Source of the DNA: an uncultured Chloroflexia bacterium
Lineage (GTDB): Bacteria; Chloroflexota; Limnocylindria; Limnocylindrales; CSP1-4
DNA: 64,000 nt
Assembly (NCBI GenBank): GCA_963800795.1
Contig: CAWDCJ010000013.1
Coordinates: forward strand, 6,916 to 70,915
Reading direction: 5' to 3'
Shown piece by piece: positions 1-49,246 of the stretch. Each line of letters starts with the position of its first letter. Positions within the stretch are counted from its first letter, which is position 1. A program made the position numbers and the translations under genes. Below the pieces are notes generated by a model, which ran no database searches, was not told the DNA's origin, and saw nothing but the letters and a program-made list of their open reading frames with translations.

Positions 1-935
1 GCCTGGATGAACCGGGCAACGCCCGCCTTCCTCCGTCCCGTTACCGTGCCCACCACGGTCATCCCCCCGTCGACGCCGAGAGCGGGCGCGAGCTCGTCGA
101 GGAGTGCTGGGTCGAACGTGAACAGGAGCTCGTAATCCTCGCCGCCGGACAGGGCACCGGCGATCGCCCGTCGGCTGCCGAGCGCCTCGACCGCCGCCGG
201 CGCGAGCGGCACACGGTCGACGTCGATCTCGATGCCCACGCCGCTGGCACGCGCCAGGTGGTGCGTCTCGCTCACCAGCCCGTCGCTGATGTCGATCGCG
301 CAGCGAACGCCCAGCCGGGCCAGGATCGAGCCGGCCGCGAGGCGCGGGACCGGCCGGTGCAGCGCCGCCAGCAGCGGATCGACGGCTGCCTCGAGATCCG
401 GCCCGCGTTCCGTGAGCAGCGCGAGGCCAGCCGACGCGGCGCCGAGCTTCCCGGTGACGGCGACGAGGTCGCCGACACGGGCGGCGTCACGGCGGAGGAG
501 GCGCGCACGATCGGCCTCGCCGACGAGCGCGACGTTGATGACGAGCGGGCCGGGTGAGCGGACCGTATCCCCGCCGACGACCCGCGTGCCGGTTCGGTCC
601 GCGAGCGACTGGAGCCCGCGCGCGACCTCGACGACGAGGGCGCGGCGACTGGCGTCAACGGCCACGGAGACGAGCGCGCGGCCGGGCCGCGCGCCCATCG
701 CCGCGAGGTCGGACAGGTTGACGGCGAGGGCCTTCCAGCCGAGGTCGTCGGCGCTCGTCCAGTCGAGGCGAAAGTGGATCCCCTCCACCAGCATGTCCGT
801 CGTCGCGACCGCGACGGTGTCCCCTGCGGCCGGCCAGCTGGCGGCATCGTCGCCGATGCCGAGGCCGTCCGAGGGTGACCCGAAGATCGTCGCGAGCCTC
901 GCGATGAGCTCGAACTCCCCCGTTGGCTCGGTCAC
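1..935 (-). CDS. thiL: thiamine-monophosphate kinase (3' end beyond window start)
   Basis: Own reverse-strand translation from GTG (933-935): VTEPTGEFELIARL..GIGDDAA..ATTDMLVEGIHF..VVGGDT..LSGGEDYELLF, the ThiL/AIR-synthase-like pattern. GTGA overlap with the thiE stop. Absent from the ORF track because there is no stop inside the window. Confidence 0.85.
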   Translation of the reverse strand, partial: MTEPTGEFELIARLATIFGSPSDGLGIGDDAASWPAAGDTVAVATTDMLVEGIHFRLDWTSADDLGWKALAVNLSDLAAMGARPGRALVSVAVDASRRALVVEVARGLQSLADRTGTRVVGGDTVRSPGPLVINVALVGEADRARLLRRDAARVGDLVAVTGKLGAASAGLALLTERGPDLEAAVDPLLAALHRPVPRLAAGSILARLGVRCAIDISDGLVSETHHLARASGVGIEIDVDRVPLAPAAVEALGSRRAIAGALSGGEDYELLFTFDPALLDELAPALGVDGGMTVVGTVTGRRKAGVARFIQ

Positions 936-1630
936 GTCCGCGCCCCGGGAGACCCCGGCGATCCGCCCTGGGCCGCACGGACCACGTCCAGCAGGCGGCG
1001 GGCGGCTGAACCCGGATCCGGCGCGGCGGCGATCGCACTGATCACCGCCAGCACGTCCGCGCCGGCCCGGACGGCGCCTGCCGCATTCTCCAGGGTGATC
1101 CCGCCGATGGCGACGATCGGGAGATCGACCGCGGAGCGTGCGGTCGCCAGGAGCTGGAGGCCCGTGAGCTGCGCGTCCGCCTTCGAGCCGGTCTGGAAGA
1201 CCGCGCCGACACCCAGGTAGTCGGCCTCGCTGAGGTCGGTTGCCTCGAGCTGCACCGCGTCCGTGATGGAGAGCCCGATCAGCGCGTCCGGGCCCAGCAT
1301 CGCCCGGGCAACGCCAAGCGGGAGGTCATCCTGTCCGAGGTGCACGCCGTCGGCCTCCGCGGCGATCGCCAGGTCGAGGCGGTCGTTCACGAGCAGGAGT
1401 GCCCCACGCCCACGGGTCAGGCCTCTGAGCGTTCGAGCTACCTGAAGGGCGTGACGGGTCGTCCCCGCCTTCTCGCGGACCTGGATGACCCGGACCCCGG
1501 CCTCGAGGGCCGCCACCGCGATCTGCGCGGATGTCCGTCCGCCGCTGAGCGCTTCCTCGGTGACGAGATAGACGCCGGCTTCGCGGAGCTGCTGGCGCCG
1601 GCGGAGGCGCAGCGGGCCGGCTTCGTTCAC
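932..1630 (-). CDS. thiE: thiamine-phosphate synthase
   Basis: Track ORF 932..1663 shows VYLVTEE, VIQVREK, LLVNDRLDLA, DGVHLGQDD, YLGVGAVFQT, PIVAIGGI. The in-frame GTG at 1630 gives a GTGA overlap with the thiM stop, so it is preferred as the start. Confidence 0.85.
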   Translation of the reverse strand: MNEAGPLRLRRRQQLREAGVYLVTEEALSGGRTSAQIAVAALEAGVRVIQVREKAGTTRHALQVARTLRGLTRGRGALLLVNDRLDLAIAAEADGVHLGQDDLPLGVARAMLGPDALIGLSITDAVQLEATDLSEADYLGVGAVFQTGSKADAQLTGLQLLATARSAVDLPIVAIGGITLENAAGAVRAGADVLAVISAIAAAPDPGSAARRLLDVVRAAQGGSPGSPGART

Positions 1631-2451
1631 GCCGGCCACGCCTCGGTCACCGTCGCGCGGCAACGGGCGCGGATGGCGTTGCCGTCAAGCCCATACACGG
1701 CATCCATGAGCTGCTGGCGGAACGTTCCCGGGCCGGCGCTGTGCTCGGCGGCGATCTCCCCCGCGACGCCGAAGGCGACCATCGCGGCGGTGGCCGCGAG
1801 GAACGGGTCGGGCTGGACCGCGAGGAAGGCGCCGACGAGGGCGGTGGCCATGCAGCCGGACCCCGTGATCGCGCCCATCAGCGGGTGGCCATTCTCGACC
1901 CGGGCGGCCCGTGTCCCATCCGTGACGTGGTCGACCACGCCGCTGGCGACGGCCGCGCCGCCCGTTCGGCGGGCGACGATCCGGGCGGCTTCGTCCGGAG
2001 CGCTGGCAGAAACCGAATCGACGCCCCGGATCTCGGCCGCGAGGCCCGCGATCGCCGAGAGCTCCGCGGCGTTGCCCCGGACGACGTCGACCCGGACGGC
2101 GGCGAGGATCGCCTCCACCGCGTCGGTCCGGAGCGTCGTCGCGCCGACGCCCACCGGGTCGAGGACCACCGGGACTCCGCGCTCGTTCGCCTCCCTGCCC
2201 GCCGCGAGCATCGCTTCGATCCAGGCCGGGTCGAGGGTCCCGATATTGAGCACGAGGGCGCCCGCGTGGCGGACCATCTCGCGGACCTCCCCGATCGCGT
2301 GCGCCATGACCGGCGAGGCACCGATGTGGAGGGTGACGTTGGCCGTGTCGTTCATCACGACGTAGTTCGTGATCTGGTGGATCAGCGGGCGCCGCGCCCG
2401 GATCTCGGCGAGGGCTTCGGCCGTGACGGCCGCGAGGTCGACCTCAGGCAT
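1627..2451 (-). CDS. thiM: hydroxyethylthiazole kinase
   Basis: LIHQITNYVVMNDTAN, VLNIGT, VVLDPVG, ITGSGC motifs. Start taken at MPEVD (ATG 2449-2451) inside track ORF 1627..2484. Confidence 0.85.
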   Translation of the reverse strand: MPEVDLAAVTAEALAEIRARRPLIHQITNYVVMNDTANVTLHIGASPVMAHAIGEVREMVRHAGALVLNIGTLDPAWIEAMLAAGREANERGVPVVLDPVGVGATTLRTDAVEAILAAVRVDVVRGNAAELSAIAGLAAEIRGVDSVSASAPDEAARIVARRTGGAAVASGVVDHVTDGTRAARVENGHPLMGAITGSGCMATALVGAFLAVQPDPFLAATAAMVAFGVAGEIAAEHSAGPGTFRQQLMDAVYGLDGNAIRARCRATVTEAWPA

Positions 2452-3322
2452 CGCGCTGCCTCCACAGGTGATTGACGGGCCCATGGCCCGCCCCGAGCGG
2501 TTCGGCGTGCTCCAGCGCGCCCTGCAGGAATACCTTCGCGGCCCTGGCCGCCTCGAGGGCGGACTGGCCGCGAGCGAGACCGGCCGCGATCGCGGCCGAG
2601 AACGTGCACCCGGTCCCGTGCGTGTGCGGCGTGTCGATCCGCGGCGCAGAAAGGACGTCGAACGCCGTCCCGTCGAAGACGATGTCGTCGGAGCGGTCGC
2701 CGCCCAGGTGTCCGCCCTTCACGATGACGACACGCGGCCCGAGCGCGTGGATGCGGCGGGCGGCCTCGCGGGCGGTGGAAGCGTCCACGACCTCGAGGCC
2801 CGCGAGCACCGAGGCCTCCGGCGCGTTCGGCGTGACGACCGTGGCGAGCGGAAGGAGCAGCTCCCGGAGCGCGCTGACCGCCTCGTCCTGGAGGAGGTGA
2901 TCGCCGCCCTTCGCGACCATGACGGGGTCCACCACGAGGCGCGCCACGCCGCCGGACCGGAGCCGACCGGCCACCGCCTCGACGATCGCGGTGCTGAAGA
3001 GCATCCCCGTCTTGACCGCGTCCGACCCGATGTCCGATAGCACGGCGTCGATCTGGGACACGACGACCTCGACGGGAACCCCGTGGATCGCCGTCACGCC
3101 CAGCGTGTTCTGGGCGGTGATCGCCGTGACCACCGAGGCGCCGTACACCCCGAAGGCCGCGAACGTCTTGAGATCTGCCTGGATGCCGGCGCCGCCCCCC
3201 GAATCCGAGCCGGCGATCGTCAGCGCGCGCGCCCGCGATCGAGCGATCGGGCGATCGGCGGATACCATCGGGCCTGCAGTCTCCTGACCATCGAACCCGT
3301 CCTCGGGGCAATGGGACGGCAT
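2444..3322 (-). CDS. thiD: hydroxymethylpyrimidine/phosphomethylpyrimidine kinase
   Basis: [49 protein letters not shown]. First gene after the TPP riboswitch. Confidence 0.9.
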
Positions 3323-3337
3323 CGAGTCAGGTGCGGC

Positions 3338-3420
3338 CTGCTTCCTTCGCTGGTACGGGCCAGATCAGGTTCGGCGGGTCTGTGGCGGGTGCCACACTCT
3401 CAGCGCTCAGCGCTCCCCGG
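3338..3420 (-). promoter_or_regulatory. TPP (THI-box) riboswitch
   Basis: Reverse strand reads GGGGAGCGCTGAGCGCTGAGAGTGTGGCACCCGCCACAGACCCGCCGAACCTGATCTGGCCCGTACCAGCGAAGGAAG. It has the conserved CTGAGA and ACCTGATCTGG..TACCAGCG cores and lies about 15 nt 5' of the thiD start. Confidence 0.9.
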
Positions 3421-3547
3421 AGGCGGTCTTCAATTCGATTCGCAGTATATGGGATCAGCGGAATCGGTCTCCCGGGCCTGGCCTCCGCCGGCGGCGGACT
3501 CGGCCCGGCCACCGGCAGGAGGGCCACGCCCGGGCTATCCTCCGGCC

Positions 3548-4388: not shown

Positions 4389-5833
4389 TCAGGGGGCGTC
4401 CAGCAGCAGCGGGCGCACGCGGCCCCAGGCGTTCCAGAGCTCGGTGAGCGGCTCGGCCCGGCGTCCCAGCATGTCCAGCATCTCGCCCATGGTCAGGCCC
4501 CCGGCCGTTTCCGCCAGGTAACGTCCGGCGTCGACCTGCACGTCTCGGAAGAGCGCTGGCATGTCCGCCTCCGATGGCCAGAAGCGGACCCGCATCGGGT
4601 CCTCGCCGGCGTAGCCGATGGCCAGCGAGAGGTCGCGCTGGCCCGGTACGCGCCCGTCGGCGAAGCCGCCCAGGCCGTCGAACCGGTACCCGAGGGCGGC
4701 CAGGGCCGTCGCGATCTCGCGGCATTGGGCCTGCGAGTACGGACCCCACAGGACGTGGCCGGTCGGGAAGGTGAGTGCCGAGGCGTCGATCGCCCGGGCC
4801 ACGATGGCGTCGACCAAGTCGGACACAAGGAGCTGCCAGCGACGCTGCTCGATGGGATCGCTCCCCGCCAGGCGGTCCACGATCGCGCGCATCGTCGCGC
4901 GGTCACCTCGAAGGAGCCGCAGGATGGCGACGTCCTGCCCGGCCGCGGCCGGCAGCCCTGCCGCCGCGGGCTCCTGCCCCGCGTGATCCAGCTGCGTCAC
5001 CGGGGCAGCCACCTCGGGTGGGGGAGACCCAAGGCGCTCGGCTTCCTCGCAGGTGGCCAGGACCATCCGCGCAGCCCGGCATTCCTCGGCCGCGTGCTCG
5101 CTCCCGATCCGGGCCACGTCGGCGTCCAGCCCCGCCTGGTCCACCGCCTTGAGGAGCCCGATCTCGACGGCGGCTTCGCGGCTCATGACCAACGTCGATG
5201 CCCGGCTCCGGGCGTTGATCCGGTTGATCTCCCGCAGCCAGGCCGCGGCTGCCGCCTCGATCGCCGACCGGTCCCGCGCGGCGAGCCGACTTCGGCGGAA
5301 CTGGGCCTGGGCGTCGTCCTTGGCCGCACGGATGGCGCGTGGATCATTGGTCGCCGCGGCTCGATCGCGGCGCGCCACGTGCTCGTCGTACGCGCGTCGT
5401 GCGTCCCGCAGCCGCTCCTGGGCCGCGGCCGCGACGGCGGCCAACCGGTCGGCGCGCCCGCACGCATCGTCCGCCGCCGCGCGCTGCGCCGAGCACGGGT
5501 CGACCGGCTCGGCCTGGGCGGTTCCCGGTCCCGCCCCACGGGCAGGTGCCAGACGGCCGGTCCCGGGCGGGTTCGCGCGTGCCGGAGCCGAACGGCCGTT
5601 CGCTCGGGCCGGAGTCGGGGGCGAAGACGTCGTCACGACCGCGGGTGCAGCTCGGACGCCTGCAACGGGGTCGCGAGCGTCGCCGCTCGGCCGCCGCTCG
5701 GACCGGCAGAGATCGTCACGCGGACCTCGCGCTGGGCCGCCGGGCGAGCCCGGAAGACCTCGATCGCGGCGCCGCCCGCCAACAGTCCGAGCGCAAGACC
5801 ACAGGTCAGGAAGACGAAATCGCTGGGACTCAC
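4389..5833 (-). CDS. hypothetical membrane-anchored coiled-coil protein (apparent frame break near 5640-5700)
   Basis: The 3' third of the 1091-aa track ORF 4389..7664 is protein-like: an Ala/Arg-rich helical region, then a C-terminal domain ..FPTGHVLWGPYSQAQCREIATALAALGYRFDGLGGF... A plausible N-terminus with a TM helix (MSPSDFVFLTCGLALGLLAGGAAI) sits in another frame (track ORF 5633..5833). Confidence 0.5.
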
Positions 5834-6092
5834 TCTGAGGTTCCTCGGTCTGCTCCATGAAGTCGACGCGTCGGACGACGGGGCGCGGCCGCGGGTCGAG
5901 CGTAGCTGCGCCGTCGCGGCACGTCAATCCGAAGACCATGCCGCGTGATGCATCGCCACGTGGGCCGATCCGTGCACGAGTGCGCATCCTCGTGTAGATT
6001 CCGGCCCGTCGATCCCCCGGCGTCGACCGGCGCCGCGCCGCATCCGCGCCCCGAGCCCCGCCAGCCGCAGGTACGAACGAGGCCCCCGCATC

Positions 6093-7928
6093 GTGCCCAT
6101 CGACCCCAACCAGGAATTCCTCGTCCAGCCGGTAGATGCGTCCTGGCTCCAGTGCAACATCGAGTGCCAGGAGGCCTGCCCTGTCGGCACGAATTGCCGC
6201 GGCTACCTGAACCTGGCCGCGGAGGGTCGGTTCGAGGAGGGCTATCTCCTTTCGCGCGAACCGAACCCCGTCGCCGCAATGTGCGCCTACGTCTGCTCCG
6301 CGCCATGCGAGCGGGCGTGCCGCCGCGGTGATATCGACCGGCCGCTCGCCATCCGGGCGATGAAGCGGTTCCTGGTCGAATGGCACGAGGCGTCCGGCAT
6401 CCCCGACGTCCTCCCGCCGATCACGCCGCGTGAAGAGCGCGTCGCGGTGGTGGGGGCCGGGCCGGCAGGCATCGCGGTTGCCCGTGAGCTCGCCGTCAAG
6501 GGGTACCGCGTCACCGTCTTCGACAGCCTCCCGTTCGCCGGCGGCACGATGCTGATCGGCGTGCCTGCCTTCCGGCTGCCTCGCGAGGCGATCGAGATGG
6601 ACGTACGGCTCGTGGAGCGGTTGGGCGTCACCTTCCGGTACAACACGAAGATCGGGCCGGATATCAGCTTCGAGACGCTCCTTCGCGACTTCGATTGCGT
6701 CGCGATCTGCGCCGGAGCGATGGACGCGGTGGGGCTCGACATTCCCGGGGCGGAGCTTGCCGGCGTGCAGTACGGCGTCGACTTCATGAAGAAGGCGAAC
6801 CTGGGCGAGCCGCTGGAAGTGGGTCGCAACGTGGTCGTGGTCGGCGGCGGCTACACGGCGATGGACTGTTCGCGGACCAGCCTGCGCCACGGTGCCGAGA
6901 ACGTCACGATCGCCTATCGCCGGACGCGCTCGGAGCTCGTCGTGGACGAGGAGGAGCTGGGCGAGACAGAGCGGGAGGGCGTCAGGATGGAGTTCCTGGT
7001 CAGCCCGATCGAGCTGGTCGGCGAGGATGGGAAGCTGACCGGCGTCCGCTTCATCCGCAACAAGCTCGGCGAGCCCGACGCCTCCGGCCGCCGTTCGCCG
7101 GTGCCCATTCCCGGCTCCGAGTTCGTCGTCCCAGCCGACACGGTCATCCCGGCCGTGTCCCAGGCCGCGGACCTCAGCTTCCTGCCCGTGGAGGCGACCT
7201 TCGAGGTGGCCCGGGGTCGCCTCAAGGTGGATCCGGCGACCTACGCCACGAACGTGCGCGGCGTCTTCGCCGCAGGCGACTTCGTGACCGGGCCGGCGAC
7301 CCTGATCGAGGCCGCCGGGCACGGCAAGAAATGCGCCTACGCGATCGATCGCTACCTGAGCGGGCGGGTCGACGTGACGGTGGCCGCCAACGTCAAGATC
7401 ACGTCGTCCTGGCGCCACGACATGCCGGAGTACTACGACGTGCTGCCGCGCCAGCACATCCCGATGCTGCCGGTCGAGGCGCGCATGGCATCCCGTGAGC
7501 CGGAGGTCAACTTCACCACCGGCGTGGAGCTGGGCTTCAGCGCAACGCACGCGGTTGCCGAGTCCACCCGTTGCTTGATGTGCAACTACAACATCTGGTT
7601 CGACCCGTTCCGGTGCGTCCTGTGCGGCGCCTGCGCCGACGTCTGCCCGGAGGGCGTCATCCACATGATCGACGTGAACCAGATGAAGTCCGAGGGGTTC
7701 CTGCCCGAGCTCGAGGAGGCTTACGGCTGGGACCAGGGCGCCGCCATGATCCTCGACGAGGAGCGCTGCATCCGCTGCGCTCTCTGCGTGAAGCGGTGTC
7801 CGTTCGACGCCATTACGATGGAGCGGTTCGAGCTCCAGGAGATCTCGACCGACGGTCGGCTCTACAAGGAGTCCTACCGGGACGCGCAGCTTGCCGGGAC
7901 GCCCGGCGTCGCAGGAGGGGCCAGGTGA
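6093..7928 (+). CDS. GltD-like NAD(P)H-dependent FAD/Fe-S oxidoreductase with C-terminal 2x[4Fe-4S] ferredoxin domain
   Basis: N-terminal Cys clusters (CNIECQEACPVGTNC, CAYVCSAPCERAC). Two Rossmann motifs (VAVVGAGPAGIA, VVVVGGGYTAMD) and VFAAGD. C-terminal CVLCGACADVCP and CIRCALCVKRCP. Stop overlaps the cytochrome b6 GTG start (GTGA). Confidence 0.85.
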   Translation: MPIDPNQEFLVQPVDASWLQCNIECQEACPVGTNCRGYLNLAAEGRFEEGYLLSREPNPVAAMCAYVCSAPCERACRRGDIDRPLAIRAMKRFLVEWHEASGIPDVLPPITPREERVAVVGAGPAGIAVARELAVKGYRVTVFDSLPFAGGTMLIGVPAFRLPREAIEMDVRLVERLGVTFRYNTKIGPDISFETLLRDFDCVAICAGAMDAVGLDIPGAELAGVQYGVDFMKKANLGEPLEVGRNVVVVGGGYTAMDCSRTSLRHGAENVTIAYRRTRSELVVDEEELGETEREGVRMEFLVSPIELVGEDGKLTGVRFIRNKLGEPDASGRRSPVPIPGSEFVVPADTVIPAVSQAADLSFLPVEATFEVARGRLKVDPATYATNVRGVFAAGDFVTGPATLIEAAGHGKKCAYAIDRYLSGRVDVTVAANVKITSSWRHDMPEYYDVLPRQHIPMLPVEARMASREPEVNFTTGVELGFSATHAVAESTRCLMCNYNIWFDPFRCVLCGACADVCPEGVIHMIDVNQMKSEGFLPELEEAYGWDQGAAMILDEERCIRCALCVKRCPFDAITMERFELQEISTDGRLYKESYRDAQLAGTPGVAGGAR

Positions 7929-8653
7929 GCTTCCTGGAGCGGGTGGATCAGACGATCCGGCGGAGCCCCGTCTTCCGGTCCATCTTCCGCAACCCGTACC
8001 CCAACGACGAGCGGTCGCGGGCGTACGCGGTGATGAACAACGTCTTCCTCCACCTGCACCCGGTCCGCGTGCGCCAGCATGCCGTGAAGTTCGCCTACAC
8101 CTTCTGCCTGGGCGGGCTCTCGTTCTTCCTGTTCCTGGTGCTCACGGTGACCGGCGTCTACCTGATGTTCTTCTACGCCCCGTCCGCCACCCAGGCGTAT
8201 TCGGACATCCTGCAGATCCAGTCCCAGGTGCCGTTCGGGCTGCTGACCCGCAACATCCACCGCTGGGCAGCCCACCTGATGGTGTTCTTCGTCTTCCTGC
8301 ACATGATGCGGGTCTTCTACCACGGCGCCTACAAGCCGCCCCGCGAGTTCAACTGGGTGGTGGGGGTCGTCCTGCTCTTCCTGACCCTTTTCCTGAGCTT
8401 CACCGGCTACCTGCTGCCGTGGGACCAGATCGCCTATTGGGCCATCACGATCGGCTCCAACATGGCCGGCTACGCGCCGCTCTTCAACACGCCCTCGAAG
8501 ACGCTGCTGCTGGCGGGACTGGAGGTGAGCGGCAACACCCTGCTCCGCTTCTACGTCCTCCACATCATGGTCTTCCCGTTAGTGGCGGCGGTCTTCCTGG
8601 CGGTGCACTTCTGGCGCATCCGCAAGGACGGCGGGATCTCGGGGCCGCTATGA
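7925..8653 (+). CDS. petB: cytochrome b6-like (N-terminal half of cytochrome b)
   Basis: From GTG 7925: VSFLERVD..NVFLHLHP..RNIHRWAAHLMVFFVFLHMMRVFYHGAYKPPRE..LLPWDQIAYWA. Four TM helices with the heme-ligand His pairs. Confidence 0.9.
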   Translation: MSFLERVDQTIRRSPVFRSIFRNPYPNDERSRAYAVMNNVFLHLHPVRVRQHAVKFAYTFCLGGLSFFLFLVLTVTGVYLMFFYAPSATQAYSDILQIQSQVPFGLLTRNIHRWAAHLMVFFVFLHMMRVFYHGAYKPPREFNWVVGVVLLFLTLFLSFTGYLLPWDQIAYWAITIGSNMAGYAPLFNTPSKTLLLAGLEVSGNTLLRFYVLHIMVFPLVAAVFLAVHFWRIRKDGGISGPL

Positions 8654-8721
8654 CGGCTCATCCCTTCGTTGGCACCTCCGCTCGCTCACTCACGCACGGC
8701 GAAGTGCGCTCGCTCGCGTGC

Positions 8722-8831
8722 TCGGCGCCGCCTTGGTCTGATCCCGTCCTCGCCGCCCCGAGGATGACTCGCTCGGTCGCGGCCCGCCGGTCGGCGCCGC
8801 CTTGGTCTGATCCTGTCCTCGCCGCCCCGAG
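8722..8831. repeat. 41-nt direct repeat, two copies (8722-8762 and 8791-8831), 1 mismatch
   Basis: TCGGCGCCGCCTTGGTCTGATCC(C/T)GTCCTCGCCGCCCCGAG occurs twice, 69 nt apart, in the 187-nt gap between the cytochrome b6 and subunit IV genes. Confidence 0.9.
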
Positions 8832-8840
8832 AGCCGTCGC

Positions 8841-9437
8841 ATGACGGAGCAGAAGGCACCGCCGGAGCGCCGCGTCGTGCTGCCGGTCGATCCCGCCCGC
8901 CGGACGGAGATCGACAAGCAACGGGTGCCGATGTCGGCCCGGCCGTATCGCCTGCTCGCGCTCGTGAAGCAGGACGCCGTGGTGCGCGTCCAGAAGGAAC
9001 CCGACGACACGGTCATGACCTGGCCGCACCTGCTCTCGATCGAGTTCCTGGCCGCCGTCTTCATGAGCATCTTCCTGCTGTTCATGGGCCTGTTCGTGAA
9101 CGCCCCGCTCGAGGAGCTCGCCAACGGGAACGTCACGCCTGAGGTGGCAAAGGCGCCCTGGTACTTCCTGGGGCTCCAGGAGCTCCTGGCCTACTTCCAC
9201 CCGACCGTCGCCGGCGCGCTCGTCCCGATCTTCGTGCTGGTCGGCGCGGCGCTGATCCCGTTCGTCGACCGCGAGAATGTCCGCGCCAACCGGCCCTCGG
9301 ACCGCAAGACCGCGGTCGTGCTCTTCTCGCTCTTCTGCGGTCTTGGGCTCGTCCTGACGTTCCTGGGTATCTTCTTCCGTGGCCCCGGCTACGCGTTCAC
9401 GCTGCCCTGGGTCAGCGGCTTCCACTTCAGTCTGTGA
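8841..9437 (+). CDS. petD: cytochrome b6f subunit IV-like (C-terminal part of cytochrome b)
   Basis: The ..VAKAPWYFLGLQELL.. motif (PEWY-type Qo site element) and three TM helices. Confidence 0.85.
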   Translation: MTEQKAPPERRVVLPVDPARRTEIDKQRVPMSARPYRLLALVKQDAVVRVQKEPDDTVMTWPHLLSIEFLAAVFMSIFLLFMGLFVNAPLEELANGNVTPEVAKAPWYFLGLQELLAYFHPTVAGALVPIFVLVGAALIPFVDRENVRANRPSDRKTAVVLFSLFCGLGLVLTFLGIFFRGPGYAFTLPWVSGFHFSL

Positions 9438-9444
9438 GCGTCCC

Positions 9445-10114
9445 ATGAGCAACTATCAGGTCGAACCCGCCAGCAAGCCCGGAGCCCTCACCAGCGAGGC
9501 GCTCAAGTCGATGCGCAACGAGGCGCCGAAGGGACTCTCGCGCCGGCAGCTCCTCCGAACGTCGCTCGGTGCGGGCGTGGGCCTCTGGCTCCTCGAAGTC
9601 TCCGCAGGCACCCTGGGGTTCCTGTGGCCCAACCTGTCGGGCGGATTCGGCGGCAAGGTCCCGCTGGGCTCGTTCACGGACGTCAAGAACGCGAACGCGC
9701 TGATCCCGTTCGGCGATGGGTACCCGGCCTACTACCAGGACGCGCGGTCGTTCATCGTGCTCGTGGACACCACTCGCCAGGAGTTCGTCCCGGGCGACGA
9801 TCCGACCGGCGACGGGACCGCCCTCAACGTGCGTGCCCTCTACCAGCGCTGCACGCACCTGGGCTGCAAGCCCAACTTCTGCGTCAAGAGCTACTGGTTC
9901 GAGTGCCCCTGCCACGGATCCCGCTACGATCGGTTGGGAACCAAGGTCAAGGAGCTCGGCCCGGCGCCGCGCTCGCTGGACCGGTTCGCGGTGAGCGTCG
10001 GCGGGCGACGGGAAGCTCACCCTCGACACGAGCAAGCTGACGCTCGGTCCGCTGCCCATAGCGCTGGGCCAGCCGGGTCTCATCCCATCGATGAGCCCGA
10101 CCGGCTGCATCTGA
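9445..10114 (+). CDS. petC: Rieske 2Fe-2S protein (1-nt frame break near 10003-10008)
   Basis: Twin-arginine signal SRRQLLRTSLGAG; CTHLGC and CPCHGS cluster boxes. A +1 slip after ..FAVSVGG reads the typical tail DGKLTLDTSKLTLGPLPIALGQPGLIPSMSPTGCI* (stop 10112-10114). Confidence 0.85.
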
Positions 10115-10142: not shown

Positions 10143-11295
10143 ATGACCGAGCAGCCGGGCCAGCGCCCGGACGAGCGCCTGCCCGTCCCGCGTGAGCCGG
10201 ACCCGGTCGTCCCGCCGGAGCCGGGTGCGGTCGTCCCGCGCGAGCCCGCGGAGGTGGATCGGTTCACCGCGCACCCGAGCGCGCACACGGCCGGGCTGAC
10301 GCCCGAACGCGCCGCGAAGATCGTCAGCCAGAGCGCCAGCGCGCGCTGGGTCGCCTTCCTGGCCGTCACGATCGTCTCCCTGTTCGTGATCGTCTACTAC
10401 TTCTACGACCTCGGCGTCCCCGGCGTCGCGAACTCCAGCCGCTTTGGCCAACGAGGTCGCCGCCCAGCAGGTCACGGCCGTGACGCAGGGGTACGCGCTG
10501 TTCGAGGCGAACTGCGCGCGCTGCCACGGCGCCCAGGGCCAGGGCGGGATCGGGCCGACCCTCAACGACCAGGCCAAGCTGCTGACCCACCTCACGCCGG
10601 GCTACCTGCAGAGCGTCCTCACGGTGGGTGGCCGCTACGTGTGCGGTGACCCGAACTCGCTGATGCCGATCTGGTCGGACCAGGGCAACCCGCCCGGGCC
10701 GTTGAACTACCGGAACCTCCAGGAGCTGATCGCGTTCATCACGGCCCCGTCCACCCTGCAGTTCCAGGGCGTCGACCCGACCACCGGCCAGACCGTCACC
10801 ATGTCCGGCTGGCGCGACCCGAGCTACGTCCTCCCGGCGGGCGCCACCCCGGTTCCAGCGTGCTGGAAGGACGCGTTCACCTCGGCCTCTTCGCCCGCGG
10901 CCAGCGCGGCCCCCAGCGCCGGGGCCAGCGGGGCGCCGAGCGCGGCCCCAGCGAGCGCGGCGCCCTCCGGCAGCCCGGCCGGCTCGCCCGGCCGCATCCG
11001 GCGGCGCCGCGGAGACGGTCCTCCAGCTGGCGGCGGCGAACATCGCCTACGACCAGACCGACCTGACCGCCCCGGCGGGGGTCCCGTTCCAGATCGCGTT
11101 CACCAACAACGACGCGGGGATCCCCCACAACGTCTCGATCCACCAGGGCTCGCCGACCGGCACGGAGGTCTTCAAGGGCACGATCTTCACGGGCGTGGCC
11201 ACCCAGACCTACGACGTGCCGGCGCTCCCCGCCGGGACGTACAGCTTCGTCTGCTCGGTCCACCCGAACATGGCGGCACGCTCACGGTCAAGTAG
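10143..11295 (+). CDS. membrane-anchored monoheme cytochrome c fused to an amicyanin-like cupredoxin domain (frame breaks near 10441, ~10990, ~11272)
   Basis: TM helix WVAFLAVTIVSLFVIVYYF. Heme box CARCH with SLMPIW. Ala/Pro/Ser linker. Then FQIAFTNNDAGIPHNVSIH..YSFVCSVHPNMAGTLTVK* (His, Cys-x2-His-x2-Met copper ligands). Confidence 0.8.
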
Positions 11296-11347: not shown

Positions 11348-12848
11348 ATGACGGAACAGGCGCTCGGTCCAGGCGGCACGGTGGTGCGCAGGCGGGCCTT
11401 CTTCGGGCTGCTCGACGCGAACGGCTGGGGCTGGGCGGGCGTCAAGGCGACCGTCTGGTTCGTTCTCATCATCATGCTGATGGCCTACCTGCCGGACCGC
11501 GCGCTCTATGCGACCGTGCAGAACACGATCGACCTCGGCGTCGCGCTCAAGGTCTTCAACCCGGCCCTCGATGTCACCCCGATCAACTTCTGCCCTGCGT
11601 CCAACGAGACCGTGCCCTGCCCCGCTCCGGCCGGGACGGTCCTGCCCTGGGAGCCCAGCCCGGTCCAGCTGGCGCTGCCGCAGGCGCGCACCGACGCGGC
11701 GATCGTGGGAGCCGGCCTCGAGACGCTGCTGGTCGGCGGCACCGATCCGACCGGGACACCGCAGGCCAGCGTCTTCGCCACCGTCATCCGGCCGGACGGC
11801 AACATCGATGCATGGAGCCAGGGCGCCCCGCTGCCGGCTCCGCGCGCCCAGGCGGCGGCGGTCTTCTTCTCGGGCACCGCGTATGTCATCGGCGGCCTCG
11901 GCGCGGACGGCCAGCCGACCGACACCGTCTTCGCCGGCACCCCGGATGTCGCGACCGGCAAGATCACGACCTGGACCGAGTCGACGGACCTGAAGCTGCC
12001 GGCTCCGCGTGCCGGCGCCTCGGTCGCCGTCGCGAGTGACGGCATCTTCCTCGTGGGTGGCACCGACGGCAAGGGTCCCGTGGACACGGTGTGGAAGTCG
12101 GCGCTGAACGCGACGACCGGCAAGCTCCAGGCATGGGCGCCCAACGCGCCGCTCACTTCGTTCGACGCCTCCGGGGCTGCCCAACCGGCGCCGCGTGTGC
12201 ACGTCGGTGGCGACGGTCCTCGGCCAGGAGCTGTTCGTGTGGGGCGGCGAGGATGCGGCGGGGCCCACGCGGACCGTGCTCCGCGGTGACATCTCGACGG
12301 ACAAGGCGACGCTGGGCCAGGTGACCCGATGGGGAACCTCGAGCACCGCCGCCCAGAACCTGCCGGCAGCCCACAAGGGCGCCTTCGGCTGGGTAGCCAA
12401 CTCGAACCTGTACTACGCCGGGGGCGCGGGCTCCAACGGCGAGATCGTGTGGGCGATCCCGGACGCGAACGGCAACATCCCGGGCTGGGTGCATCTCGCC
12501 GCGAGCGACCTGCCGTCGACGCTCGACCTGCAGGACGCTGCGCCGATCGTCTCCGGCTCGCATGTCTTCCTCGTCGGCGGGACCACGTCGTCCGGCGCGA
12601 CGACCGGGACGGCGCGCGCGAACCTCTCCCCGGCGCTCCCGTTCTTCCAGCTCGGCCTCTTCTACATCGTGGTTCCCGCGATGGGCATCCAGGGTCCGGT
12701 CGGCCAGCAGCTCTCGTACCTCGCGGCCGCCGGCGTGGCCACCGGCGACTTCGTGCTCCTGCTGCTGCTGGGGTACGCGTTCAACCACAAGGAGCGCACG
12801 CGCGCGTTCCTCCACCACCTGCGCAACCGGCGGCAGCGAACCGCCTGA
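11348..12848 (+). CDS. Kelch-repeat beta-propeller membrane protein (frame break near 12185)
   Basis: N-terminal TM (VWFVLIIMLMAYL). Repeated blade motifs LLVGGTD, AYVIGGLG, IFLVGGTDG, LFVWGGED, LYYAGGAG, VFLVGGTT. C-terminal TM pair. Merges track ORFs 11195..12289 and 12195..12848. Confidence 0.7.
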
Positions 12849-15061: not shown

Positions 15062-16492
15062 CTACCAGGTGGGAAGCAGCTGCCGGCCGAGCCAGTCCGC
15101 GGGTTCCAGGCGCGGACGGATCAGGGCAGCCCGCCCGCCGCGGATTGCCACTTCGGCCGGCACCGGATGGCTGAGGAAGAACGGCATCGACTCCGTGAAT
15201 CCGTAGGCGCCCGCGTCCAGCACCGCCACCAGGTCCCCGACAGCCGGAACCGGCAGCCGCGCATTCGCGGCGAAGATGTCCAACCCGGAGCAGAGCGGGC
15301 CGGCGACCGTGACAGGCCAGGATCGGGCCGTCCCGGCCCTGGCTCCCAGGACCCGCACGCGGTGCTCCTGCCCGACCAGCGCGGGTCGAAGCAGGTGGTG
15401 GACGCCGCCGTCGAGGATGGCGACCTCGGCCTCGCCGACGCGCTTGCGGTCGACAACCTGCGCGACATAGGCGCCGGCGGCCCCCACCAGGAAGCGGCCC
15501 GGCTCCAGGAGCACCCGGAGATCGCCCAGCCCTGGCGTGGCAGCCCAGCCCTCGGCGAGGGTCGCCAGGCGGCGGCCGAACCCGACCACGTCGAGCGACT
15601 CCTCGTGCGGCTCGTAGGGGATGCCCAGGCCGCCCCCCGCATCGACCAGGCGGAGCGGGACCGCGGCGTGGGCGGCCACCGCCCGTGCCAGCTCGACCGT
15701 CTCGCGCACGTGCGTCGCCAGGCGCCCGGCGTCGAGCACGTTGGATGCCCCGAACCGGTGCAGCCCGAGCAGCTCGAGGTGCCTCGACCGGGCGATGGAG
15801 CGCGCCGCTACCCACAGGTCGGGCTCGTCCATCCCGAACTTTCCGGCCCCGTCGTCTCCGACCAGCCGGACGCGCTCCAGGCCTTCCACTGCGCTGATCG
15901 AGGCGCGCAGCAGGACAGGGACGCGGCGACCCGCGCCGGCCGCGATCCTGTCCAGGCGGTCCAGCTCGCCCAGTGACTCGAGCGTGATCGCCCGAAGGCC
16001 GGCCGCCATGGCCTCACGGAGCTCGGCGTCGCGCTTGCCGGGACCCGTCACGACGATCCGCTGCCCGGGGATCCCCGCCTCGCGGGCGATGGCCAGCTCT
16101 CCGCCCGAGGCCACGTCCGCGCCCAGGCCAAGGCGGCCGAGGTGGGCGACGATCGCGAGGGCCGGATTCGCCTTGACCGCGTAGGCGATCTCGACGATCG
16201 GCGGCAGCGCCGCCCGCAAGGTCTGGACCTGGCGCTCGATGACGTCCAGGTCGTAGACATAGAGCGGCGTTCCGAACCGGGCCACGAGGTCGGCCGGCTC
16301 GAGGCCGCCAAGTCGGTCGCCGCGCAGGATCTCGTTGCGGGCGGGCGGCCGGCCTCGCCGCGGGGCGGTCGAACCCGGCAGCGCTCTCGAGTCGCGCGGC
16401 GTGACCGGCAATGTCTCGCTCGCCGGCCCCGCGTCCCGGCCCGCGGCAGCCTCGGGTTGGCCCCGGGAGGTGCGGAGGCCAGACGTCGTCAC
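15062..16492 (-). CDS. lysA: diaminopimelate decarboxylase
   Basis: FGTPLYVYD, AYAVKAN, ASGGEL, VDAGGGLGIPY, LLEPGR, GPLC..D, AGAYG. GTG start overlaps the dapD stop (GTGA). Confidence 0.9.
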   Translation of the reverse strand: MTTSGLRTSRGQPEAAAGRDAGPASETLPVTPRDSRALPGSTAPRRGRPPARNEILRGDRLGGLEPADLVARFGTPLYVYDLDVIERQVQTLRAALPPIVEIAYAVKANPALAIVAHLGRLGLGADVASGGELAIAREAGIPGQRIVVTGPGKRDAELREAMAAGLRAITLESLGELDRLDRIAAGAGRRVPVLLRASISAVEGLERVRLVGDDGAGKFGMDEPDLWVAARSIARSRHLELLGLHRFGASNVLDAGRLATHVRETVELARAVAAHAAVPLRLVDAGGGLGIPYEPHEESLDVVGFGRRLATLAEGWAATPGLGDLRVLLEPGRFLVGAAGAYVAQVVDRKRVGEAEVAILDGGVHHLLRPALVGQEHRVRVLGARAGTARSWPVTVAGPLCSGLDIFAANARLPVPAVGDLVAVLDAGAYGFTESMPFFLSHPVPAEVAIRGGRAALIRPRLEPADWLGRQLLPTW

Positions 16493-19509: not shown

Positions 19510-19584
19510 GGGCCCGTAGCTCAGCGGCAGAGCGAGGGACTTTTAATCCCTGCGTCGTGGGTTCGAATCCCACCGGGCTCACCA
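19510..19584 (+). tRNA. tRNA-Lys (anticodon TTT), CCA encoded
   Basis: GGGCCCGTAGCTCAGCGGCAGAGCGAGGGACTTTTAATCCCTGCGTCGTGGGTTCGAATCCCACCGGGCTCACCA. 7-bp acceptor stem, TTCGAAT T-loop, CTTTTAA anticodon loop. Confidence 0.9.
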
Positions 19585-41154: not shown

Positions 41155-41229
41155 GGCGGGGTGGAGCAGCGGCAGCTCGTCGGGCTCATAACCCGAAGGT
41201 CAAGGGTTCGAATCCCTTCCCCGCAACCA
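41155..41229 (+). tRNA. initiator tRNA-Met (anticodon CAT), CCA encoded
   Basis: GGCGGGGTGGAGCAGCGGCAGCTCGTCGGGCTCATAACCCGAAGGTCAAGGGTTCGAATCCCTTCCCCGCAACCA. Three G:C pairs close the anticodon stem, and position 1:72 is unpaired (G:A); both are initiator hallmarks. Confidence 0.9.
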
Positions 41230-45510: not shown

Positions 45511-45888
45511 CTACTTGACCGTCAGGGTGCCGACCATGTTCGGATGGACGGAGCAGACGAAGGTGTACGTGCCGGCCGGCAGGGCCGGCACGTCATAGGT
45601 CCGGGCCCCGGTCCCGGTGAAGATCTCGCCCTTGAAGACCTCCGTGCCGGTGGCCGAGCCCGCATGGATCGAGACGTTGTGGGGGATCCCCGCGTCGTTG
45701 TTCGTGAAGTCGATCTGGAAGGGCGTGTTGGCGGGCGCCGAGAGGTCGGTCTTGTCGTAGGCGATCCCGCTCGCGGTGAGCTGGAGCGCGACCGCGGCGC
45801 CGGGCGCTGCGCTCGCCGCCGGCGATCCGGCCGCCGGCGCCGGATCCGGCCGCCGCGCTTGCCGCGGGTGCCGCGGACGGGGAGGGCG
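45511..45888. repeat. copy 1 of a ~380-bp duplicated block (cupredoxin module + linker)
   Basis: 45511-45839 matches 49247-49575 base for base except one position (45595 A vs 49331 G). A further ~50 nt are similar, with a 7-nt indel. Confidence 0.9.
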
Positions 45889-46963: not shown

Positions 46964-47600
46964 TCAGAGCAGGTAGAGCGTCGAGAAGAGTGCGATCCAG
47001 ACGACGTCCACGAAGTGCCAGTAGATGGAGGTCGCCTCCACCGCGTCGTGGTGCTTGGCCGAGAACTGCCCGGACATCCCGCGGTAGAGCACGACGCTGA
47101 GCATGATCGCACCGCCCAGGACGTGCGCGCCGTGGAAGCCCGTCAGCGTGTAGAACGTGCTGCCGAACGCCGTGTCGGTGATCCCGAACCCGAGCTGCGT
47201 GTAGTCGTAGATCTGGCCGATCAGGAAGATCAGCCCGAGGACCAGGGTGATCCCGGTGTTGCGAAGGAAGCCCGTCCGATCGCCGCGCCGGATGGACCAC
47301 ACTCCCAGCTGCATTGTCACCGAGGAGAGCACGAGGACCATCGTCAGGGTCGCCGGAAGCAGGATCTCGTGGTGGATCTGGAAGGGCTCGAACGGCGCCT
47401 CGTTCACGAGGGGCGGCCACTGCGTCGCGTTCAGGCGAACGTTGAAGTAGGCGGCGAAGAGGCCCGCGAAGAACATCACCTCGGAGGTGATGAACAGGAT
47501 CATCCCCAGGATCGGGTTGCTGATTCCCCGCTGGCCGTGCGCCCGGCTCTCGCCCGGGACACCGGCGCGTGCGTGCCAGGGCCGTGCTGCTCGTCGTCAT
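46964..47600 (-). CDS. ctaE: cytochrome c oxidase subunit III, 5-helix form (frame break near 47585)
   Basis: LGMILFITSEVMFFAGLF, TLTGFHGAHVLGG, YWHFVDVVWI. ATG at 47598-47600 lies in another frame, 2 nt after the ctaD stop. Confidence 0.85.
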
Positions 47601-47602
47601 GC

Positions 47603-49237
47603 TCAGTGCCCCGCCGGAAGCGCCGGCACGTCGTTGGCGTGGCGGAGGTCGAAGACCGGTCGCTCGGAACGGATCGGCGGGAGGTGGTCGAAGTTGTACG
47701 GCGGTGGCGGGGACGAGGTCGCCCACTCCAGGGTGTTCCCCTCCCACGGGTCGTCGCCGGCGGGCTCGCCGGAGCGCAGCGTGATGAAGACGTTCCACAG
47801 GAACGGCAGCATCGCGACCGCGATCGTGAAGCCCCCGATCGTGGCAAGCAGGTTCAGATCGTTCCAGCCGGCGGTGGCGCTGTAGTCGGCGATACGGCGC
47901 GGCATCCCGGACAGGCCCAGCAGGTGCATCGGGAAGAAGGTCAGGTTCATCCCGATGAAGATCCCGACGAAGTGGATCTTGCCCAGGGTCTCGTTCAGCT
48001 TCCGGCCGAACATCTTCGGCCACCAGTAGTAGAGCCCCGCGAAGACGCCCATGATCGAGCCGCCGAACAGCACGTAGTGGATGTGGGCGACGATGAAATA
48101 GGTCGCGTGGACGTGGTAGTCGACCGGCACGGCGGCCAGGACCGCGCCGTTGATCCCGCCGATCAGGAACAGCGAGAGGAAGCCAACCGCGAAGAGCATC
48201 GCGGACGTGAAGCGGAGCTTGCCCCGGAACATCGTGGCGACCCAGTTGAACATCTTCACGCCGGTCGGCACCGCGATCAGGAACGTCATCAGGCTGAAGA
48301 ACGGCAGGTAGACGGTCCCCGTCGTGAACATGTGGTGGGCCCAGACCGAGAAGCCGAGCGCGCCGATCCCCGCGGTCGCGAAGATGAACGCCTTGTAGCC
48401 AAAGAGCGGCTTCCGACTGAAGGTCGGCAGCACCTCGGAGACGATCCCCATGGCGGGCAGGATCATGATGTAGACGGCCGGGTGGCTATAGAACCAGAAG
48501 ACGTTCTGCCACAGGATCGCGTTGCCGCCCAGCGCGGTGTTGAAGAAGCTTCCGCCGAGATTCCGGTCGATGTAGAGCATGATCAGGGCGCTCGTCAGGA
48601 CCGGGGTTCCCATCAGCACGAGCACGCTCGTGACGAGCATCGTCCAGACGAAGATCGGCATCCGGAAGAGGGTCATCCCCGGCGCCCGCATCTTGAAGAT
48701 CGTCACCAGGAAGTTGATGGCGCCCAGGATGGAGCTGGTGCCGACCAGCGTGAGCGCGACGATCCAAAGGTCCGTCCCAGGCCCCTTGGAGAACGCCGAT
48801 TCAGCCAGCGGGCTGTAGCTGGTCCAGCCCTCCGCGGCCGCGCCGCCGAGCGGGAAGCCCAGCAGGGCGATCAGCGCCGAGAGCGGCAGCAGCCAGAACG
48901 ACAGGGCGTTGATGCGTGGGAACGCCATGTCCGGCGCGCCGATCATCAGCGGGACGAGGTAGTTACCGAAGCCCGCCAGGAACGGGATGACCACCCAGAA
49001 GATCATCACCGAGGCGTGCATGGTGAACATCTGGTTGTAGGTGGCCTCGCTCATGAACTGGAGCCCGGGCTGGGCCAGCTCGGTGCGAACCGCCAGCGCG
49101 AAGAGTCCACCGACCAGGAACAGGATCAGCGAGTTGAACGTGTAGAGGATCCCGATCTTCTTGTGATCGGTCGTGGTGAGCCATTCGTAGAGCCCGGTCC
49201 GGTAGGTGGCCGCGGGGCGCAGCACGGTGGTGGCCAT
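47603..49237 (-). CDS. ctaD: cytochrome c oxidase subunit I (aa3 type)
   Basis: TTDHKKIGILY, MAFPRINALSFW, WTSYSPL, FWFYSHPAVYIMILP, WAHHMFTTG, HFHYVL-type IVAHIHYVL. Confidence 0.95.
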   Translation of the reverse strand: MATTVLRPAATYRTGLYEWLTTTDHKKIGILYTFNSLILFLVGGLFALAVRTELAQPGLQFMSEATYNQMFTMHASVMIFWVVIPFLAGFGNYLVPLMIGAPDMAFPRINALSFWLLPLSALIALLGFPLGGAAAEGWTSYSPLAESAFSKGPGTDLWIVALTLVGTSSILGAINFLVTIFKMRAPGMTLFRMPIFVWTMLVTSVLVLMGTPVLTSALIMLYIDRNLGGSFFNTALGGNAILWQNVFWFYSHPAVYIMILPAMGIVSEVLPTFSRKPLFGYKAFIFATAGIGALGFSVWAHHMFTTGTVYLPFFSLMTFLIAVPTGVKMFNWVATMFRGKLRFTSAMLFAVGFLSLFLIGGINGAVLAAVPVDYHVHATYFIVAHIHYVLFGGSIMGVFAGLYYWWPKMFGRKLNETLGKIHFVGIFIGMNLTFFPMHLLGLSGMPRRIADYSATAGWNDLNLLATIGGFTIAVAMLPFLWNVFITLRSGEPAGDDPWEGNTLEWATSSPPPPYNFDHLPPIRSERPVFDLRHANDVPALPAGH

Positions 49238-49246
49238 CAGGGTCTC

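Follow-up and report, generated by a model that had tools for sequence, protein, structure and literature searches.

We analyzed a 64,000-nucleotide (nt) stretch of DNA, here called the window, from an uncultured Chloroflexia bacterium (GenBank assembly GCA_963800795.1, contig CAWDCJ010000013.1, positions 6,916 to 70,915 of the forward strand), with a G+C content of ~72%. Its + strand carries a six-gene cluster encoding, in order, an NADP(H)-binding FAD/iron-sulfur flavoprotein (6093 to 7928; 611 amino acids [aa]), a cytochrome b6-type subunit (7925 to 8653; 242 aa), subunit IV (8841 to 9437; 198 aa), a Rieske [2Fe-2S] protein (9445 to 10114; ~222 aa after the frame repair described below), a membrane-anchored monoheme cytochrome c fused to a cupredoxin (10143 to 11295; ~383 aa after repair), and, as the last gene, a Kelch-repeat beta-propeller membrane protein (11348 to 12848; ~499 aa after repair). 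A 187-nt spacer with a structured element (8654 to 8840, + strand) lies between the cytochrome b6 and subunit IV genes. In an intact relative, locus L001, the six products measure 611, 242, 200, 224, 358, and 476 aa. An earlier note on this DNA, made from the sequence alone, had described, within 6093 to 10114, a 611-aa flavoprotein with GltD-type iron-sulfur motifs and FAD and NAD(P)H folds, followed in the same operon by subunit IV, Rieske, and cytochrome c genes. Pfam and motif analysis confirmed the flavoprotein. The three followers are also present, but the region described ended at 10114, which is the Rieske stop, and the cytochrome c gene lies beyond it.

The GTG codon of the flavoprotein gene is the first possible start past an upstream in-frame stop. 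At its other end, the junction with the cytochrome b gene reads GCCAGGTGAGC (7920 to 7930); the TGA stop (7926 to 7928) and the GTG start of cytochrome b (7925 to 7927) share a GTGA overlap at 7925 to 7928, as the earlier note had said, and a GGAGG sequence lies just upstream of the GTG start. Tight coupling does not hold for every junction of the operon, given the 187-nt gap between cytochrome b6 and subunit IV. A scan for promoters and terminators returned 0 promoters and 2 terminator-like sites, the latter matching chance expectation. We infer cotranscription of the operon from strand, spacing, and overlaps only.

Pfam assigned three regions of the flavoprotein: Fer4_20 (residues 19 to 101), which is the 2x[4Fe-4S] domain of the GltD/dihydropyrimidine dehydrogenase type; Pyr_redox_2 (116 to 411); and Fer4/Fer4_7 (507 to 575). 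The N-terminal domain has eight cysteines (C21/25/29/35 and C64/68/72/76). The FAD site is marked by GAGPAG at residue 121 and an acidic residue closing the next strand, and a second Rossmann motif, GGGYTA at residue 251, is followed by AYRRT. The YRR past the second Rossmann strand is what we take to be an NADPH-type signature, as in GltD. Two CxxCxxCxxxCP motifs begin at residues 508 and 559, and an RCLxC cysteine pair at residues 493 to 497, which the earlier note had missed, is invariant in 54 diverse relatives. The protein has no transmembrane helix or hydrophobic segment, and its tail (588 to 611) is predicted to be disordered. Taken together, these features predict a GltD/NfnB-like module joined to a C-terminal 2x[4Fe-4S] domain, for a total of four [4Fe-4S] clusters.

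Comparison with solved structures agreed with this architecture. Sequence matches in the PDB comprised 9bov_A (1e-109), 9n5u_A, 8oh5_C, NfnB, and GltD, with FwdF (5t5i) matching the C-terminal ferredoxin domain. An AlphaFold2 model built from 43 homologues had a mean predicted local distance difference test score of 86.7 and a predicted template modeling score of 0.87, with low confidence only in the last ~24 residues. Foldseek ranked Caldicellulosiruptor NfnABC (9bov_A; E = 7e-50) first, followed by StnC (8oh5_C), Thermococcus NfnABC (9n5u_A), NfnI-L (5jca_L; TM score of 0.81, root mean square deviation of 2.2 Å), GltD, and dihydropyrimidine dehydrogenase. The GltD-like identity proposed earlier thus stands, with the GltD-like modules of NfnABC and StnABC as the best solved relatives and NfnI-L and GltD behind them.

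Several more specific names were tried for the flavoprotein and rejected. As a GltD proper, it scored 272 bits against a cutoff of 483 for TIGR01318 and 209 against 448 for TIGR01317, no GltB gene is adjacent, and GltD lacks a C-terminal ferredoxin domain. Membership in the NfnAB, NfnABC, or StnABC enzymes was rejected as well: the homologous Fer4_20 and FAD/NADPH module is all that is held in common, the operon encodes no NfnA/S or HydABC-like partner, and no GltB, NfnA, or HydABC-type partner is encoded near the flavoprotein in the window, where the partner is instead a membrane Rieske/cytochrome b complex. Homologues in the Joint Genome Institute (JGI) pipeline are called "formate dehydrogenase beta subunit" or "glutamate synthase beta-like," names that mirror only the common GltD-like module.

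The cytochrome b6-type subunit matched PF00033 (6e-44) and aligned with spinach b6 over residues 59 to 242 (E = 1e-49; ~50% identity to plant b6), and it retains all four heme-ligand histidines in that alignment. Its F-C61-L-G-G aligns with Y-C35-L-G-G of spinach b6, the CxGG motif of heme cn, which is also found in loci L001 to L004, L008, and L090. The N-terminal region is extended and contains the motifs FRSIFR and FLH43LH45P; the first histidine of the latter is present in 10/10 flavoprotein-linked cytochromes b and in L090. The NCBIfam equivalog model for ExtP (NF040969, "selenite/tellurite reduction operon b-type cytochrome ExtP") gave this cytochrome b 294 bits against a cutoff of 290, while subunit IV scored 45 against a cutoff of 150 for ExtQ (NF040970). 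We rejected the ExtP label as an annotation artifact, since no ext genes occur in the context. The ExtP model is likely to cause misannotation throughout the clade of cytochromes b to which this one belongs (the APWY clade; see below).

Subunit IV was identified by PF00032, alignment to PetD, and hydropathy. It has three predicted transmembrane helices, and its quinol oxidation (Qo) site motif is A-P-W-Y rather than PEWY, within a stretch that reads ...VAKAPWYFLGLQELL; APWY occurs in every related locus. A second motif, W-P-H-L-L-S-I-E68-F, contains Glu68, a residue shared by L090 and most relatives. In the Rieske protein, we found a twin-arginine signal (SRRQLL) and, as cluster motifs, CTHLGC and CPCHGSRY. 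Its top two PDB matches, 9rk3 and 9rk4 (4e-14 and 9e-14), outranked every b6f and bc1 Rieske protein; they are Kustd1480 and Kuste4569 of Kuenenia stuttgartiensis, as confirmed by PMC12954380. No cytochrome f domain was found in the operon, and PetG/L/M/N genes are likewise absent; in these respects, and in having APWY rather than PEWY, the cluster is unlike the chloroplast and cyanobacterial b6f complexes, with which it has in common the heme ligands, the cysteine equivalent to Cys35, a separate subunit IV, and the idea of an NADP(H) flavoenzyme on the negative (n) side of the membrane. The b6f partner is a loosely bound plant-type ferredoxin-NADP+ reductase (FNR), whereas the window flavoprotein is GltD-like, has four predicted iron-sulfur clusters, and is encoded in the operon.

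On the positive (p) side, the cytochrome c gene product combines a membrane anchor, a monoheme c domain (CARCH), an Ala/Ser/Pro-rich linker, and a cupredoxin of the type-1 copper kind (H...C-x2-H-x2-M). It contains a single CxxCH, so that the hexa- or octaheme p-side subunit of other such complexes has no counterpart here; the p-side cytochrome varies among relatives, with diheme and multiheme forms in L002 to L009. The Kelch protein has one N-terminal and two C-terminal hydrophobic segments, has its counterpart in L001 at 15062 to 16492, and may serve as an additional subunit or in assembly. It closes every Limnocylindria operon tested (57/57 loci), whereas operons of other phyla lack it.

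A candidate terminal oxidase is encoded elsewhere in the window. The aa3 oxidase cluster (46964 to 51760) comprises COX3 (46964 to 47596), COX1 (47603 to 49237), and COX2 (49258 to 50742) on the - strand, the three together spanning 46964 to 50742 outside the operon, and CtaG on the + strand. An additional plastocyanin-like cupredoxin (49247 to 49522) is found at the C terminus of COX2, and a third paralogous cupredoxin domain lies at 45511 to 45789 on the - strand; each of the two is ~55% identical to the cupredoxin of the operon cytochrome c. Because the three cupredoxins are paralogous, we suggest that copper connects the bc complex to the oxidase; the high-potential branch likely ends at the aa3 oxidase. 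Other genes in the window are of a heterotroph type (sugar and amino-acid ABC transporters and aldehyde dehydrogenases), and no high-potential lithotrophic donor system was seen in the window.

Three of the six reading frames are broken in this assembly. Relative to L011, the closest full-length relative (94% DNA identity, all genes intact), we found five 1-nt indels: ~9999 in the Rieske gene, which is one extra base; ~10443, ~10986, and ~11274 in the cytochrome c-cupredoxin gene; and ~12204 in the Kelch gene. Matches of these three genes to L001 are spread over two to four frames. The genes for the flavoprotein, cytochrome b6, and subunit IV are intact. Repair of the five single bases yields full-length proteins with all ligand motifs and no internal stops, and the indels at ~9999 and ~10443 fall in or beside short G or T runs. 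Further 1-nt differences from L011 occur at ~976, 3474, 3488, 5551, 5566, and 5646, the phase of G+C content at third codon positions switches frequently along the entire window, and broken matches of a like kind occur in many related loci from long-read metagenome-assembled genomes (MAGs). Because the 1-nt differences and phase switches are window-wide and the MAGs of relatives are alike, the indels are most likely assembly or sequencing errors of an error-prone long-read-type assembly.

The arrangement is strictly conserved in Limnocylindria. A genome scan with the window flavoprotein alone, which reached Limnocylindria only, found a relative in at least 400 species-representative genomes. 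Close relatives are 86 to 99% identical and come from MAGs labeled Candidatus Limnocylindria/Limnocylindrales or "Chloroflexia/Chloroflexota." Junctions and neighbors were counted in the best 80 of these loci, and gene counts were restricted to contigs reaching far enough. Cytochrome b starts at the flavoprotein stop in 79/80 loci, and the contig of the 80th ends there. Among the 79, the junction is GTGA in 71, TTGA in 5, and a stop abutting a start in 3, giving a 4-nt overlap in 76/79. A full cytochrome b follows in 66/67 loci, subunit IV in 63/64, Rieske in 62/63, cytochrome c-cupredoxin in 57/59, and Kelch in 57/57. In one exception (L038, 8833 to 11298), the cytochrome b match ends after 29 codons and is followed by NuoI/NuoE/NuoF-like genes, which reflects either a chimeric contig or a true rearrangement. 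The flavoprotein and cytochrome b are the best-conserved proteins of the cluster (86 to 96% identity), while the p-side proteins are only 38 to 73% identical.

The association extends beyond this class. Among representatives of 50%-identity clusters, flavoprotein identity falls from 84% (the Limnocylindria cluster) to 50% and then 45%, and dozens of proteins of 550 to 700 aa have its architecture. Members found in a profile search came from Thermodesulfobacteriota, Nitrospirota, "Deltaproteobacteria," and Chloroflexota (source names). We looked up the contexts of eight distant homologues (31 to 44% identity), whose named sources are Nitrospirota and Chloroflexota, and 8/8 adjoin Rieske and cytochrome b genes. 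Three loci (L002, L004, and L008) have the order flavoprotein, b6, subunit IV, Rieske, and cytochrome c; the other five (L003, L005, L006, L007, and L009) have flavoprotein, Rieske, a long fused cytochrome b, and a multiheme cytochrome c, and in L003 and L005 to L007 the flavoprotein and Rieske genes overlap by 4 to 14 nt. The adjacency of flavoprotein and cytochrome b, which the earlier note had proposed to check by synteny, therefore holds both in Limnocylindria and in the distant homologues and is far beyond chance. CxGG is kept in the short cytochromes b, and its cysteine is lost in the fused ones, the pattern given for "subfamily G" by Dibrova et al. 2017 (PMC5600118). As a separate observation, an NfnAB-like pair, made up of a DHODB_Fe-S_bind/NAD_binding_1 protein and a 464-aa Fer4_20/Pyr_redox_2 protein, lies directly upstream of the flavoprotein-Rieske-cytochrome b genes in the Nitrospirota locus L003 (4729 to 6946); it hints at a common NADPH/ferredoxin context.

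The earlier note had also pointed to a similar association in anammox planctomycetes, and this resemblance is one of true homology, as seen in the Rieske PDB matches above and in an anammox-type metagenomic locus, L090. That locus was found via a Kuste4569 fragment, and its Rieske protein is 85% identical to Kuste4569. Its gene order (Rieske, 585-aa flavoprotein, cytochrome b, subunit IV, hexaheme cytochrome c, and a hydroxylamine oxidoreductase [HAO]-like octaheme protein) is that of Kuste4569-4574. The window proteins are 39% (flavoprotein, over 565 aa), 50% (cytochrome b), 46% (subunit IV), and 48% (Rieske) identical to those of L090, and the cytochrome b N-terminal motif W(R/K)SxFRxGxP...(F/W)LHLHP is common to both. 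When L090 is numbered from Met17, His43 and Arg247 fall where Hauser et al. place them. His43 of Kuste4571 has been proposed to ligate an extra intermonomer heme b, as predicted with AlphaFold3, and NfnABC (9bov/9bp5) and FwdF (5t5i) are the templates reported for Kuste4570 too (PMC12954380). By these alignments, the window complex is orthologous to the anammox complexes that contain an NAD(P) oxidoreductase.

Complexes of this kind are already known. Kartal et al. 2011 and 2013, as cited in PMC12954380, described NAD(P) oxidoreductase genes within two Rieske/cytochrome b operons of Kuenenia and proposed Qo bifurcation to NAD(P)+, and all subunits of the Kuenenia complex comigrate, according to the citation of de Almeida et al. 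2016 in the same paper. Large NAD(P)-binding FeS proteins were reported by Dibrova et al. 2017 to accompany the cytochromes b of "subfamily G" (Dibrova et al. 2013, 2017) "in many other cases" (PMC5600118). Kao and Hunte 2014 described the same group as an "APWY clade" with CxGG in delta-Proteobacteria, Chloroflexi, Nitrospirales, Planctomycetes, and Actinobacteria, of which, by their account, no member had been characterized (PMC4122944). The earlier note, which named only anammox complexes as a parallel, underestimated the association: it is widespread and documented in PMC5600118 and PMC4122944. Its remark that quinol-driven NAD(P)+ reduction was proposed but not proven agrees with the current literature (PMC12954380). 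In the literature searched, we found no mention of the Limnocylindria version of the complex; what is new is this lineage and its p-side module.

With Kuste4569-4574 and Kustd1480-1485, the window cluster has in common a split b6 and subunit IV, CxGG, an APWY-type Qo site, and the CPCHGS-x-Y Rieske box; a ~600-aa flavoprotein with a GltD-like module and a 2x[4Fe-4S] domain, encoded beside cytochrome b; and a cytochrome b with the N-terminal (W/F)LH43LHP and an RKDGGISGPL end. It differs in its host, an aerobic Limnocylindria bacterium with an aa3 oxidase, and in its p-side partner, a monoheme c-cupredoxin in place of the hexa- and octaheme cytochromes and HAO-like protein of Kuenenia. Subunit IV has three predicted helices in the window and five in Kuenenia, the Rieske gene follows those for the flavoprotein, b6, and subunit IV in the window and precedes them in Kuenenia, and the Kelch membrane protein is extra. 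The short CxGG cytochrome b and the KAPWYF of subunit IV are those of subfamily G and the APWY clade, the descriptions of which are phylogenetic and cover neither Limnocylindria nor the cytochrome c-cupredoxin/Kelch module. Geobacter ExtOPQ, a Rieske protein, a cytochrome b, and a membrane protein, are clade members without a flavoprotein; the extHIJKLMNOPQS genes around them specify multiheme cytochromes and a porin, and none of those genes occurs in the window.

The explanation that we favor overall, with a confidence a little short of even, is that the cluster encodes an APWY/subfamily G Rieske/cytochrome b6 quinol-oxidizing complex with a cytoplasmic NADP(H)-FAD subunit. Within it, the flavoprotein is very probably a bona fide subunit wired to the b hemes. 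Lacking an anchor, it would dock on the n-side of the cytochrome b6 dimer, probably at the clade-specific N-terminal segment of cytochrome b, and its iron-sulfur chain would link FAD to the n-side hemes bH and cn and possibly to an extra His43-ligated heme. (Mena)quinol would be oxidized at the Qo site, where the two electrons would part ways. The first would pass through the high-potential Rieske cluster (Ser and Tyr), heme c, the fused copper, the copper of COX2, CuA, and heme a/a3 to O2; the second would go from bL to bH and then either to quinone at the quinone-reducing (Qi) site, as in a normal Q cycle, or along the iron-sulfur chain to FAD and NADP+. NADPH could thus be made by respiration, on a branch that is probably reversible and competes with Qi turnover, and the complex would link the pools of quinone and NADP(H) to each other and to the membrane potential.

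As to direction, we tentatively favor quinol-driven NADP+ reduction as the main physiological one because of the NADPH-type motif, the constant Qo machinery, and the high-potential Rieske signature. In the loci examined, the flavoprotein was always found with Rieske and subunit IV, and Qo machinery is needed only if bifurcation supplies low-potential electrons. The window Rieske box, CPCHGS-R-Y, has the Ser and Tyr hydrogen bond donors of Kuste4569, for which +303 mV was measured; the authors of that study argue that with menaquinone, bL and bH are low enough for NAD(P)+ reduction (PMC12954380). Several points weigh against NADP+ reduction. An aerobic heterotroph has other sources of NADPH, and delivery of half of the quinol electrons to NADP+ would be stoichiometrically excessive. 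CxGG, subunit IV Glu68, and the b6-like Qi-side residues suggest a functional Qi site, which fits flow in the opposite direction equally well. By a rough estimate, the energy balance with menaquinone is only marginal against the full proton motive force. In the window flavoprotein, Ala513 aligns with Arg511 of Kuste4570, a residue that the Kuenenia study locates close to the extra heme, and even in Kuenenia, the direction of flow is unproven (PMC12954380).

Almost as likely as NADP+ reduction is that the same complex runs in the opposite direction, with electrons passing from NADPH through FAD, four [4Fe-4S] clusters, and heme cn/bH to quinone at Qi, so that it acts as a nonpumping NADPH:quinone reductase. 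Such a route would supply the second Qi electron, comparable to the proposed input of FNR/ferredoxin into the chloroplast b6f complex; with menaquinone it is exergonic by ~250 mV, it accounts for the retained Qi features (CxGG, Glu68, and the similarity to plant b6), and it suits an aerobic heterotroph, which must oxidize reduced pyridine nucleotides and has no obvious need for reverse flow. GltD and dihydropyrimidine dehydrogenase modules normally run from NADPH to the iron-sulfur clusters, Dibrova et al. 2017 view these oxidoreductases as anchored by a small cytochrome b, with a proposed "membrane-anchored dehydrogenase" ancestry (PMC5600118), and FNR copurifies with cyanobacterial b6f, as cited in that paper. 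However, NADPH:quinone reduction leaves the constant pairing of the flavoprotein with Rieske and subunit IV unexplained and gives the high-potential Rieske signature no direction-specific purpose, NADPH specificity is unusual in a catabolic dehydrogenase, and the Kuenenia authors count such flow as an "enormous energy loss" given pumping NADH dehydrogenases (PMC12954380).

The remaining alternatives fare much worse. Decay is improbable: on this account, the p-side half (Rieske, cytochrome c-cupredoxin, and Kelch) is truly frameshifted and the cluster nonfunctional, as might be read from the confinement of all five indels to those three genes, but single-base repair restores every one of them, two of the five indels sit at short single-base runs, 1-nt differences and phase switches occur elsewhere in the window too, and related long-read MAG loci are broken alike while the closest relative is intact. 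We regard operation of the whole complex in reverse, from cytochrome c/copper to quinone and NADP+ with a high-potential donor driving reverse electron transport, as slightly less probable still. Its relatives do occur in nitrite oxidizers and anammox bacteria, which need reverse electron flow, and an APWY Qo site without a carboxylate has been called "characteristic for complexes operating in reverse direction" by Kao and Hunte (PMC4122944); that statement is a proposal only, however, and the window has an aa3 oxidase, heterotroph-type genes, and no visible lithotrophic donor system. Least probable of all is that the flavoprotein is an independent soluble NADPH:acceptor oxidoreductase (e.g., NADPH:ferredoxin or polysulfide reductase-like) that is merely cotranscribed. 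The lack of a transmembrane segment, the frequency of GltD-like modules in soluble enzymes, and the JGI names would suit such an enzyme; against it stand the 8/8 distant homologues of the same architecture that adjoin Rieske/cytochrome b in two gene orders, the conserved start/stop overlap with cytochrome b or Rieske, the missing soluble partner genes, the standing of the flavoprotein and cytochrome b as the two most conserved genes of the cluster, and the comigration of the Kuenenia homologue with its complex, as cited in PMC12954380.

Few kinds of respiratory enzyme still lack an agreed net reaction; Rieske/cytochrome b complexes that incorporate an NAD(P) oxidoreductase belong to them, and the debate has been framed almost wholly on anammox, with nitrite reduction driving NAD(P)H formation. 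The host of the present cluster is an aerobic soil or freshwater bacterium of the class Limnocylindria, which is abundant globally. Because the module is strictly conserved in Limnocylindria and, in the window, accompanies an aa3 oxidase and a copper chain, we argue that it has a general role that does not depend on nitrogen chemistry; to a specialist, the association alone is no surprise, but its universality in an abundant aerobic class extends the question past anammox. A bolder proposal, which we consider doubtful, is that the main and possibly only complex III of Limnocylindria splits quinol electrons between O2, via heme c, blue copper, and aa3, and NADP+. If it were true, aerobic respiration would make NADPH directly by Qo bifurcation, and NADPH might also reenter on the n-side; the anammox hypothesis would extend to ordinary aerobes, and the quinone pool and NADPH would be joined by a route independent of complex I and transhydrogenase. 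The Limnocylindria complex is also simpler comparative material, with one heme c and one copper against 6 to 16 hemes, for modeling, heterologous expression, and redox prediction. Automated annotation misleads here, through the two JGI names and potentially "ExtP."

The spacer between cytochrome b6 and subunit IV contains a conserved structured element of ~118 nt, with a covariance model match at 8654 to 8773 in the window. It is present in about 31 to 34 of 66 Limnocylindria loci; elsewhere the spacer is 0 to 45 nt. RNAalifold predicted 16 base pairs, 8 of them with compensatory changes. Paired cells made up 95.6%, versus 86.8% in shuffles, but this measure is biased because the alignment also yielded the structure, and the count of compensatory pairs is more reliable; the observed values were reached by 0/500 shuffles, and slid controls collapsed. 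The window copy has a tandem duplication of the 3′ part, with a 41-nt repeat at 8722 to 8762 and 8791 to 8831 (69-nt period). No Rfam family matches the spacer. Because copies also occur outside the spacer (L087, 13572 to 13692; L049, 677 to 793, - strand), the element looks like a low-copy dispersed structured repeat and not a dedicated regulator.

Next to the flavoprotein gene, on the - strand at ~4401 to 5950, is a divergent gene of ~617 aa (7939 to 9792 in L001) that adjoins the flavoprotein gene in 78/80 Limnocylindria loci. Its product has an N-terminal hydrophobic segment and Ala/Pro-rich regions and no Pfam or NCBIfam match. Farther along the - strand, a thiamine pyrophosphate riboswitch (RF00059, 62 bits; 3324 to 3429) lies upstream of thiamine genes (932 to 3364) for phosphomethylpyrimidine kinase, hydroxyethylthiazole kinase, and thiamine monophosphate synthase. 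tRNA genes are located at 19510 to 19581 and 41155 to 41226.

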